From Octopus vulgaris (Eukaryota): DNA of 64,000 bases. The stretch lies in the NCBI GenBank assembly GCA_951406725.2, contig OX597826.1, positions 78,678,001 through 78,742,000 on the forward strand, read 5' to 3'. The notes below the pieces were generated by a model. The model had not been told where the DNA came from. It saw only the letters and a program-made list of their open reading frames with translations, and did not search any database. This document shows positions 10,698 to 31,352 of the stretch, one piece after another (the stretch's first letter is position 1; each line of letters begins with the position of its first letter). The position numbers were made by a program, and so were the translations under genes.

Positions 10698-11272
10698 AAA
10701 ACAATTTACAATGCCATCCGCAAAAAAGACTCTTGAAATAAACTTAGAAAATCCCTTACAGAATACATTCATAAACACCAACTCAAGGAATACTGGTGGA
10801 ATATTCCCATCAAAATTTCTGTCAAATGTAAACATAACGGATATTTTTGTCGGGGACAGAGGGACAAAAGTATATACCATCATAGAGGTCAGCTGCCCTG
10901 CAGATATAAATATCTGATTGAAAATCAAAGAAAAAGAGGATATATATGGACAACTGCCTCGAAACCTCCAGCTTCTATATCCAGACTCTGAATTCATATT
11001 CATACCAATGATAATTGGAGCACTAGGTTTTGTTAGTAAATGCTTAAAAGAGAATTTGGATAAACTGGGATTTTCAGAAATCGACCGGCTAATTCGTACA
11101 TTGCAAGTGCAATCTGTGAGTGGAACAGTAAAAATATGCAAGACTTTTTCTCAATTTTTAAATGTGAATTTGTTTGTGTTAACTACATCTCAAAGATGGA
11201 GCCTTGTATCTTTGTTGGAAACCGGGTCCCTCCTCAGTGGAACATTTATGATAATGAAAAAAATAGATGAGA
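10698..11272 (+). pseudogene. 3' end of an RLE-type (R4-like) non-LTR retrotransposon embedded in (CATA)n
   Basis: KEYWWNIPIK..KCKHN / DIFVGDR...IIEVSCPADINI*LKIKEKEDIY...IPMIIGALG: PD-(D/E)xK restriction-like endonuclease region plus ~110-bp 3' UTR; (CATA)n on both sides. Confidence 0.85.
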
Positions 11273-11419
11273 CATACATACATACATACATACATACATA
11301 CATACATACATACATACATACATACATACATACATACAAGCACACCCAGTCTGGTTGAATTAATTTATTGTTAGGTGAGATTTGAATCCAAGCCAAAACT
11401 AAATTTTAATAAATTTGAC

Positions 11420-16188: not shown

Positions 16189-16531
16189 GCCTTTGCACAG
16201 CTTCTAACGCAGATAATGTACTACAGTGTCAGCTGTTCACTACCAGTAAGGGTAACACCCCTTATTTTTCGAGCACCTTCCGGAGTATTCGAGCAGTTCC
16301 AAGCAGTGATGTTTTCTGCAAGTGCTCCACCCTTATTACAGCCCCTATTTGTTCCGTGTACTTCTCAAGATTTTTACTCACTGTTCGCAGGGTTCCGACA
16401 ATTATTGCTACTACTACCACCTTTTTCAGCAACCACAACTGCTTAACCTCCCAAGCTAACCTGTCATATCTCTCGACTTTTCTTTCTTCCTTATCGCATA
16501 CCTTGTTGTCAGCTGGGCATGCTATATCTAC
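16189..16531 (-). pseudogene. Dong/R4-like LINE 3' end in (TAA)n
   Basis: DIACPADNKVCDKEERKVERYDRLAWEVKQLW...IIVGTL...LQKTSLLGTARILRKVLEK*, then a short UTR and (TAA)n. Confidence 0.9.
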
Positions 16532-16540
16532 TATTATTAT

Positions 16541-16590
<50 letters not shown>

Positions 16591-16601
16591 TTATTGTTAT
16601 T

Positions 16602-16665
16602 CTTTATCACAGGTTTTGTTGGAGCTCCTGTAGTCTTACATGCGTAGTGGGCTTGCTACCTGCAA
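16602..16665 (-). mobile_element. 3'-terminal stub of the Dong-like family seen at 19250-19535
   Basis: CAGGTTTTGTTGGAGCTCCTGTAGTCTTACATGCGTAGTGGGCTTG vs CAGGTTTTGTTGTAACTCCTGGAGCCTTGCATGCGTAGCGGGCTTG (19263-). Confidence 0.7.
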
Positions 16666-17754: not shown

Positions 17755-18022
17755 ATCAGCTGGTCACAATGTGCTTTGCATTGTTTTAGCCTTCAAATGC
17801 ATTGTTTAGCCTTCAAATGACGCCACCCCACTGGCTAAGCGAGCAGGCCAACAGAAGAAAGAGTGAAAGAAAGTTGTGGCGAAAGAGTACGGCAGGGATC
17901 GTCACCACCCCCTGCCGGAGCCTCGTGGAGCTTTAGGTGTTTTCGCTCAATAAACACACACAATGCGCGGTCTGGGAATCGAAACCGCGATCCTACGACC
18001 GCGAGTCCGCTACCCTAACCAC
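17755..18022 (-). mobile_element. Family D-head SINE with family C-type tail, 5' end clipped
   Basis: GGGAATCGAAACC (B-box, reverse complement) and centre as in 8253-8610; tail as in 14575-14660. Confidence 0.75.
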
Positions 18023-18085
18023 TGTACCCCGGAGGGGAACCTCCTCTTAGGTGCACCCATGGTCATTCGTGACCGATGGAGTTGA

Positions 18086-18136
<51 letters not shown>

Positions 18137-18207
18137 TACACACTCAACTCCATCGGTCACGAATGACCATGGGTGCACCTAAGAGGAGGTTCCCCCTCCG
18201 GGGTACA
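18023..18207. repeat. Near-perfect palindrome: ~68-bp arms around a (TA)n centre
   Basis: 18023-18090 is the reverse complement of about 18139-18207 apart from one G in a homopolymer run. Confidence 0.9.
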
Positions 18208-18505
18208 AGTCTGGGCAGAAAGTCGCCTCGCGGTTGAACGCACAACCCAGGGTTGATTTTATGGAAGACCAGCGGTCGCCCATGCATACCAGCCTCCTCT
18301 CTGCACGCAACCAATGTTATCCGAGGAAAAGGCAAAGGCTGATACAGTTTGGCACCAGTGATGTCGCAACTCATTTCTACAGCTGAGTGAACTAGAGCAA
18401 TGGGGAAAAAAAGTTTCTTCCTCAAGATCACAACGAGCAGCCCGGTCCGGGAATCGAACTCACAAACTCACGATCGTCAGCTCGACGCTCTAACCACTGA
18501 GCCAC
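18143..18505 (-). mobile_element. Family C SINE
   Basis: Collinear with 1255-1592; head TGGCTCAGTGGTTAGAGCG, B-box GTTCGATTCCC. Confidence 0.8.
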
Positions 18506-18525
18506 ATACATATATATGTACATAT

Positions 18526-19090
18526 TTTTATTTGCGGTTGAAGCTTTGGCTGTTATTTCTAGTGGGTGAATGGCCTATTATGGCCGTTCCTTTATTGTTG
18601 ATGTTGAACTTAAAAATGGTCTATGACTATTTTAATTTTTTCCTACTAGGCCGCTGGTGGCAAAAGAATTCTACAAAATTTTTTTTGCCACCCTATATTG
18701 ATTAATTATGAATTTTCTGGTTAATTCCGTAATGGAATCGACGGCTTATATTTATTTGCTGCCGATAAATTTGGCGCGAGTGCGACGATTTGAAAATTTT
18801 AGGTCAGATATTAACTTGGCAACGTCGGAAATGCCTCGTGAAAATATCTGTTCCGTCTTGGGCTATTTCTTACTGATGAATCTGAGGGCCTGTGGAAGAT
18901 TGGCTTGATTTAATTTAATCAGGTTAGTTTACCATTAATCAGCAGATGAAACGGTATATCGTATAAGAAATTACAGGGTAAATGTTTTTAAATTTTCTCC
19001 TGGTTTACTGAATTAACTTTTATTTGCGGTTGAAGCTTTGGCTGTTATTTCTAGTGGGTGAATGGCCTATTATGGCCGTTCCTTTATTGT

Positions 19091-19094
<4 letters not shown>
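18526..19094 (+). mobile_element. Non-coding hammerhead-bearing element with identical 77-bp terminal direct repeats (492-bp period); retrozyme or PLE pseudo-LTR-like
   Basis: 18526-18602 is identical to 19018-19094; hammerhead at 18865-18971; TA-rich left flank and (TA)n right flank. Confidence 0.8.
18865..18971 (+). ncRNA. Type I hammerhead ribozyme motif, canonical core
   Basis: atttctta-CTGATGA-atctg...cagat-GAAAC-ggtatatc-GTA-taagaaat: 8-bp stem I, 5-bp stem II base, near-palindromic stem III; predicted cut after 18963. Confidence 0.85.
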
Positions 19095-19144
<50 letters not shown>

Positions 19145-30171: not shown

Positions 30172-30301
30172 TATATATATGTATGTATGTATATATATGT
30201 AGTAAGAAGAGGAGCAATCATTACATATGTTTTAATATGTATAGTAGTTATATATATACTTAGTAAGAGGAACAGTTATTCCAATATATAATAATAGTAG
30301 T

Positions 30302-30838
30302 AATAAAAGAAGGGTAAAGATACCGCTTGCTAAAAATGAAAGCGAAAGCTTCAAAATACCACCAATTCTACGATAAATACACACACGAGCAATGCAATGG
30401 ATATTTTTAAAAATAGGCCTACCTTCAGGATGGAATTTGAAGGTAGTTTGCATACCCCAATATCAACTTGATTTCATGCTGTGCATGAGAAAACGTGCCT
30501 TGCACTCATCAGTTGGAGACGGTATTTAACATCTATTTCTAAAATATTCATTGCGTCAACTCGTGTGCCTTTCTGACTTTAAACGTCCCATTCCGTTTAA
30601 AGGGAAAAACTATTGTAAACAATAAAAAAGTAAATATATGAAATACTATTACTGTTAAAAACAGTAATAATGATATTGGGGCATGTAAGCTACCTTCAAA
30701 TTCCATCCTGAAGGTAGGCCTAATTTTTTTTAATATCCTTTGCGTTGCTCGTGTGTGTATTTTATCGTAAAATTGGTGGTTTTTTGAAGCTCTCGCTTTC
30801 ATTTTTAGCAAGCGGCATCTTTACACTTCTTTTATTCA
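30302..30838. repeat. ~165-bp diverged inverted repeat (30302-30465 / 30671-30838)
   Basis: TAGGCCTACCTTCAGGATGGAATTTGAAGGTAG and its reverse complement, collinear over both arms. Confidence 0.9.
30455..30518 (-). ncRNA. Type I hammerhead ribozyme motif, canonical core, AUA triplet
   Basis: Minus strand: ctccaa-CTGATGA-gtgc...gcat-GAAAT-caagttg-ATA-ttgggg; 6-bp stem I (one G-U); stem III ATCAA-G-TTGAT. Confidence 0.7.
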
Positions 30839-31194
30839 TATTATACCTGTTTAGGTAGAAGTCTTGCTAGCCACCTCGTTATTATTGTTTTTAACAGTAA
30901 TAATACTTCATCATATTGACTTTTTTATTTGGAGTAATATATATTTATACATATATATATATAAGAGGAACAGCCATTACAGTATGCGTGTGTGTGTTTA
31001 CGTCGTAGTTATATATATAAACAATAAGAAGGTGAGCAATTATTTTCTATACAGTAATCTCTCGACTATCGTTGATGTTACGTTCTAAACCCTCCCACAG
31101 AAATAATTAAAATCTAAAAAAAAATGAATACTTATCGGCCGCAGAAACCCGCGATATAGATTGACTGTATATATTCTAATGTATAGTAGTAATC

Positions 31195-31352
31195 TTTATG
31201 TTCTGAGTTCAAATTCCGCCGAGGTCGACTTTGCCTTTCATCCTATCGGGGTCGATAAAATAAGCACCAGTTGATCATTGGGGGTCGATGTAATTACCTT
31301 ACCCCTTTTCCCGAAATTGCTGGCCTTGTGCCACTTTAAATTTGAAACCAAT
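31195..31352 (+). mobile_element. Family A SINE, 5'-truncated
   Basis: Family core intact. Confidence 0.8.

Follow-up and report, generated by a model that had tools for sequence, protein, structure and literature searches.

How a 569-bp stretch of non-coding DNA in the Octopus vulgaris genome came to hold one complete repeat unit and the beginning of the next, and whether RNA made from it could cut itself, are the questions raised by the insert at positions 18526 to 19094 (plus strand) of the window, the whole 64,000-nt stretch of DNA that was analysed. The insert comprises 1.16 units (492 + 77 bp) of a non-coding hammerhead repeat family: the first copy of a 77-bp direct repeat, at its 5′ end (18526 to 18602), is identical to the second copy at its 3′ end (19018 to 19094), the unit recurs at an interval of 492, and 49 nt of TA, the presumed insertion target, follow directly (19095 to 19143). 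The unit has a G+C content of 35%, and its longest stop-free frame, read head-to-tail, spans 68 codons. The first-pass annotation had described such a 569-bp insert, 492 bp plus a perfect 77-bp repeat ending at (TA)n, and all of this was found as stated. On the left, positions 18505 to 18525 form the TA/CA-rich tail of an upstream SINE-like repeat. Both flanks are TA-rich, the best match between them is 6 nt at 55 nt from the end, and no clear target-site duplication was seen; in metazoan retrozymes such duplications, when present, are described as longer than 4 bp. No second copy of the unit occurs within the 64,000-nt window. We favour, with moderate confidence, a reading in which the insert is one daughter of a high-copy family of non-coding repeats, likely metazoan non-LTR retrozymes. 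RNA of this family is predicted to self-cut, likely forms a ~492-nt circle, and was likely reverse-transcribed into (TA)n by the enzymes of a Penelope-like element.

The window around the insert is microsatellite- and SINE-rich and animal-like, with no recognisable gene nearby; its repeats resemble those of octopus genomes, and a scan for tRNA genes found none. A near-perfect inverted repeat of ~70 bp (18021 to 18209), its arms separated by a (TA)n run, lies 320 bp upstream of the insert and looks like a pair of copies joined tail to tail; it also yields spurious microRNA matches below cut-off. An abundant SINE-like family is represented at 31190 to 31260 and at ~20 further places in the window, 75-98% alike. 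Two reading-frame fragments, at 16265 to 16603 (minus strand) and 10918 to 11355 (plus strand), have no Pfam match; the first adjoins a long (TAA)n tract and has 31 relatives with identity up to 73%. We take both to be C-terminal ends of restriction-like-endonuclease LINEs.

The complete type I hammerhead that had been proposed was recovered on the plus strand at 18865 to 18971. Stem I pairs 18865-72 with 18964-71 through eight Watson-Crick pairs; the core consists of CUGAUGA (18873-79), GAAA (18948-51) and a GUA after which the cut is predicted, at 18963/18964; stem II pairs 18880-84 with 18943-47, and stem III pairs 18951-54 with 18959-62 around a UAUA loop. None of 20,000 dinucleotide shuffles of the unit met the hammerhead descriptor, which is looser than the observed motif. 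The 68-nt domain II (18880 to 18947) is built from a 5-bp basal stem, an internal loop, a 4-bp stem and a G-U-rich hairpin, and the pair closing its basal stem is A-U in place of the usual G-C (G10.1-C11.1; PMC4209133). The hairpin, annotated earlier as 13 bp, was located at 18898-18910/18917-18929 with five G-U pairs, and extends to 14 bp (18897-18910/18917-18930) with pairing probabilities of 0.91-1.0. As the insert contains a single hammerhead, which lies outside the 77-bp repeat, it is a daughter that cannot itself release a monomer.

Rfam returned nothing at gathering level, the only hit being RF00008, whose 26 bits fall short of the 48.5 cut-off (E 0.013; 18850-18957). This hit corresponds to a type III reading of the same core, with a cut at 18857/58, which we rejected: at -22.9 kcal/mol it is 5.6 kcal/mol less stable than the type I fold (-28.5 kcal/mol), and the U that it cannot do without is altered in 46% of the depth of DNA run X1 and 95% of that of DNA run X4. 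Matches to the hammerhead pattern elsewhere, at five loci in metagenome contigs and 11 loci in viral contigs, were alike over no more than 17-30 nt and were attributed to chance. Although an Rfam score under the cut-off would suit a motif that arose by chance within an ordinary duplication, or an artefact of assembly, we regard either as scarcely credible, given that the shuffles failed to reproduce the motif and that both junction and motif recur in independent DNA runs and studies.

The unit is highly self-paired when folded as RNA (z -4.57 as a linear and -4.95 as a circular molecule, with 59% of the circular fold paired), and G-U pairs account for 22 of 146 pairs in the plus-strand fold versus 4 of 124 in the minus-strand fold, which upholds the earlier view that the G-U-rich pairing reflects structure at the RNA level. 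In the predicted circle the active hammerhead fold is minor, with stem I at 0.08-0.35 and stem III below 0.07. The stem III segment (18951 to 18962) is self-complementary over 12 nt; as a hairpin within the monomer it is valued at -0.1 kcal/mol, and as a 12-bp self-duplex with the UAUA loop at -13.6 kcal/mol. Pairing of two hammerheads through a palindromic stem III has been described for metazoan repeats (PMC4209133; PMC6765202). In these models the A-U closing pair and the weak stem III suggest slow cutting. Among retrozyme dimers from Xenopus, eight of the nine predicted did not cleave, according to a preprint (bioRxiv 10.64898/2026.07.22.740005).

The family is present far beyond this locus. 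Nineteen of the 24 runs listed, under four organism labels and from 11 studies, contain at least half of 53 words sampled from the element, and ten of the 19, from five studies, are presumed to be RNA; selecting runs by exactly matching words biases the set towards near-identical haplotypes, and one of the 19 may be the window's own source. All four sister runs added to the survey contained none of the 53 sampled words. A faeces metatranscriptome (X20), with a word share of 0.06, was left out of the comparison. Contigs were compared in detail for four runs: X1 and X4 (DNA), and X3 and X5 (presumed RNA, a label that is a guess). On a 641-nt stretch, which includes 56 nt of the SINE-like flank, the two DNA runs placed 5,278 and 14,611 contigs, and a rough floor for X1 is 300-2,200 copies, a range that depends on an assumption about contig overlap, summed depth being no copy number. 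The expectation that the unit would be found in many copies was thus borne out in the DNA runs, and a single-copy sequence can be dismissed. The share of contigs continuing into unlike sequence was 0 in both DNA runs and, in X4, depth over the unit junction resembled interior depth, which together indicate that in most of the family the end of one period leads into the start of the next and not into a long element. No dominant branch was seen among the loose ends listed for the DNA runs, beyond which lie 218 more. An array of two full units was not observed among the contigs of the four runs, none of which spans the stretch and which are too short to reveal such arrays. Many copies, a head-to-tail junction and a strongly self-paired RNA support the description of the element as retrozyme-like.

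Evidence for transcription comes from the presumed RNA runs, whose contigs have depths of 8-20. A 523-nt contig of X5 (depth 8.1) closes on itself, leading back 492 nt with a 30-nt overlap, to give a unit of 493 with no branch into flanking DNA; of the five X5 contigs aligned, it alone covers the element. In X3, which has another organism label and comes from another study, contigs 13 and 10 also circle the period, and a 472-nt contig shares four of the X5 contig's changes. Relative to the window copy, the X5 contig has three substitutions and three indels and the X3 contig two of each. Four of the six X5 differences are carried by 0.04-8% of X1 DNA depth, and the X5 contig retains the window letter at eight of nine sites where the X1 majority differs; because carried-over DNA would be expected to show the majority letters, the rare haplotype in X5 is unlikely to be carried-over DNA. 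These sequences make it likely that one source locus or lineage is transcribed and that the window copy is a member of it. Near identity to the RNA-run contigs also favours the earlier description of the insertion as young, for which the identical repeats are a weaker basis, since zero differences over 77 bp only bound divergence to below 3.8%. A further X3 contig (contig 14, 318 nt), aligned at 18870-18938, is a diverged relative in which the domain II hairpin and a portion of the repeat are preserved, the remainder being different.

In the cycle that we propose, a source locus with at least two hammerheads would be transcribed and its RNA would cut itself at GUA, a step in which two hammerheads probably join by their palindromic stem III. 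By analogy to the known class, a host ligase would then close the monomer into a circle. A nick in (TA)n would prime cDNA synthesis 131-146 nt downstream of the cut, within the monomer, and copying would go back over the intact cut site and 438 nt more, ending 77 nt beyond one full turn. Priming at that point on a linear, already cut monomer would yield no more than 131 nt, and the template would therefore have been a circle or an uncut multimer. The 3′ end of the insert lies 131 nt past the predicted cut; other copies reach ~15 nt further, also in TA-rich sequence, and copies ending near 18609 in TA-rich sequence are represented by an X1 loose end (8 contigs). The (TA)n end, the partial tandem and the truncation point, by analogy, to a partner of the Penelope type, as Penelope-like elements of the Neptune and Naiad types are known to favour (TA)n, to form partial tandems and to be truncated at the 5′ end (PMC8557442). 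No such partner was found.

Reverse transcription running more than once round a ~492-nt circle, or jumping between templates, had been offered in the first-pass annotation as the origin of the insert. This fits the anatomy and the closed cycle contig in a presumed RNA run, but the cycle is also what tandem or partial-tandem transcripts would give: the contig is compatible with a circle or with either kind of transcript, and a 569-nt linear transcript would likewise assemble as a cycle. We therefore entertain, tentatively, a version in which the same non-autonomous family forms no stable circle and is copied from linear, partly uncut tandem transcripts with template jumps by the reverse transcriptase. 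A cycle contig forms from any transcript whose repeat exceeds the assembly word, cutting may be slow for the structural reasons given above, and stops and jumps do occur, as 14 rearranged joints with clustered resume points attest; yet the X5 cycle shows no branch into flanking DNA, and in coral, mussel and axolotl repeats of this class build up as circular RNA and are joined by RtcB in vitro (PMC7229834).

The 14 rearrangement joints, which are the best-supported ones only, were counted from the two DNA runs, with two RNA-run joints excluded; their short sides measure 20-27 nt where given, and they were called at 85% likeness. Two of them, from two runs, pick up again at 18964, immediately past the predicted cut (slack 1 and 3 letters; P 0.0009), the cut at 18963/18964 having been named in the first-pass annotation before the joints were examined, and we take this as an indirect sign, at the sequence level, of cutting in vivo. 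The resume points cluster (seven pairs within 3 nt; P 0.001), with further groups at 18776-18779 and at unit positions 19016-19018, the insert's own 5′ end, where three of the 14 resume; these two clusters coincide with or adjoin the 3′ arms of helices in the predicted fold. The left ends of the joints show no clustering (P 0.13). We read this pattern as reverse transcription halting at a cut end or a helix and then jumping. Loose ends of contigs include stops at 18504, at the left flank. It is conceivable, though we would not yet rely on it, that the family is active and that its copies preserve every step of its cycle: priming of the RNA circle from (TA)n targets at one fixed site, halts where the RNA cuts itself, and a hammerhead with long arms that forms dimers and escapes standard screens. 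If so, the genome itself would demonstrate directly the copying of retrozyme circles by enzymes of the Penelope type.

Another type I hammerhead, diverged in sequence, occurs on the minus strand of the window within 30260 to 30844, its core starting at 30512, with a predicted cut at 30461/30460 and a palindromic stem III. The 3′ part of this neighbour (30294 to 30465) has a 174-nt inverted copy at 30671 to 30844 (89.7%), which starts 5 nt before the cut, and the neighbour matches the 77-bp repeat at 21 of 25 nt and has a similar end motif before (TA)n. Its presence suggests that this genome contains several related families. The same kind of end motif before (TA)n is seen in two short TA-flanked segments, 30173 to 30258 and 30937 to 31019, which are 70% alike and may be short tails as described at Penelope-like insertions.

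A different origin would make the unit the pseudo-LTR of a long coding Penelope-like element and the insert a 5′-truncated partial tandem of its terminus. Penelope traits are indeed present, namely the palindromic stem III, the partial tandem and the (TA)n end (PMC4209133, PMC8557442); the diverged neighbour with its inverted truncated copy shares the 21/25 stretch with the 77-bp repeat, and the 218 further loose ends lie beyond those listed. We nonetheless judge this improbable: after its 3′ end the unit sequence leads back to the hammerhead and not to an ORF, the DNA runs neither continue into unlike sequence nor show a dominant branch among the listed loose ends, and no match to reverse transcriptase (RT) or GIY-YIG was found in 150 of 249 filtered window frames, nor any Pfam family above cut-off. 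At this locus, no RT plus GIY-YIG frame flanks the insert. Naiad, Chlamys and Hydra consensus files, in which line breaks can hide matches, gave one chance-like match among nine short motifs of the insert and its neighbour.

Variation within the family was compared with the predicted fold. Among the forty substitutions listed, beyond which lie three more variants, the only change in the core is at free position 7; an untouched core has a chance probability of 0.37 (39 sites in 492), and core invariance is thus not significant. Variants in predicted pairs kept pairing in 15 of 22 cases at p>=0.5 (P 0.14 and 0.08) and in 8 of 11 at p>=0.8 (P 0.05 and 0.03), which is suggestive, not strong, in favour of the modelled fold. 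T18947C, at 21% of X4 depth, disrupts the pair closing stem II. In the loop of stem III, the depths of A18956G and T18957C agree (0.75/0.73 in X4 and 0.08/0.10 in X1; 107/105 and 33/34 contigs), and from this agreement in depth and contig number the two changes are probably linked, converting UAUA to UGCA. The predicted stem III duplex is -17.5 kcal/mol with UGCA versus -13.6 with UAUA, and -10.6 and -7.1 with the single changes. That the double change keeps the palindrome points, on these modelled energies, to paired hammerheads. Among the family variants A>G exceeds T>C, 12 versus 5 against base content (P 0.012), with the direction of change unpolarised; this could reflect RNA editing written back into DNA in the octopus host, and G-U tolerance explains it equally well.

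In the literature that we searched on octopus and cephalopod hammerheads and circular ribozyme RNA, which left most subscription papers outside, no description of the family was found. A paper on Octopus vulgaris repeats reports recently active Penelope-like families and uses no ribozyme term in its supplement (PMC13282606); its repeat library may hold this consensus. Most likely, the insert works like, and is a daughter of, a metazoan non-LTR retrozyme, a class that is already known. How retrozymes return to the genome is treated as a hypothesis in PMC7229834, and in the preprint as a mechanism that remains to be worked out (bioRxiv 10.64898/2026.07.22.740005). Because the octopus family numbers hundreds to thousands of copies, targets a microsatellite, is primed within a narrow zone and shows joints at the cut base, retrozyme reinsertion can be tested in it by counting copy ends in a single assembly. 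The 68-nt domain II, moreover, suggests that hammerhead counts based on Rfam or on short-loop descriptors miss whole families.

Retrozymes and hammerhead-bearing repeats of this kind are known in molluscs, cnidarians and vertebrates (PMC7229834; bioRxiv 10.64898/2026.07.22.740005), which allows the insert to be placed among characterised systems. Plant LTR retrozymes (PMC4918200), as the other papers cited here describe them, are likewise non-coding and have a hammerhead and terminal direct repeats, but they carry a type III hammerhead inside each LTR together with a PBS, a PPT and 4-bp duplications, whereas the type I motif of the insert lies outside its 77-bp repeat. Like the insert, Penelope pseudo-LTR hammerheads (PMC4209133, PMC8557442) have a palindromic helix III that suits dimer formation, occur in partial tandems, are truncated at the 5′ end and, in Neptune and Naiad, show a (TA)n insertion bias, and in some Naiads the core halves are 35-50 nt apart (PMC8557442), comparable to the insert's long domain II. 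Unlike those pseudo-LTRs, the insert has no ORF, its 8-bp stem I and 4-bp stem III exceed the minimal motif, and A-U stands in place of the conserved G10.1-C11.1.

The retrozyme monomer derivatives of Li, Clavereau and Pollet are also dispersed single units, with consensus lengths of 51-972 bp, and are proposed to descend from Penelope pseudo-LTRs; the "active" class of that preprint requires two hammerhead-bearing units, of which the insert locus lacks the second, and its main text makes no mention of molluscs or cephalopods (bioRxiv 10.64898/2026.07.22.740005). The 350-390-bp repeats of Mytilus galloprovincialis, which are metazoan non-LTR retrozymes (Cervera and de la Pena 2020, PMC7229834), share with the octopus unit its non-coding nature, a G+C content below 50%, a type I hammerhead once per unit, a head-to-tail junction, many copies and a strongly self-paired RNA. 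The mussel motifs are likewise without the usual loop 1-2 contact bases, and in axolotl Amex2 the basal pair of helix II is likewise non-standard (PMC7229834). Compared with the retrozymes of that study, the octopus unit is, at 492 bp, just over the 150-450 bp range and has a 68-nt domain II in place of a 4-bp hairpin; the insert holds 1.16 units with one hammerhead at a (TA)n target, and circle and cleavage are here predicted (PMC7229834).
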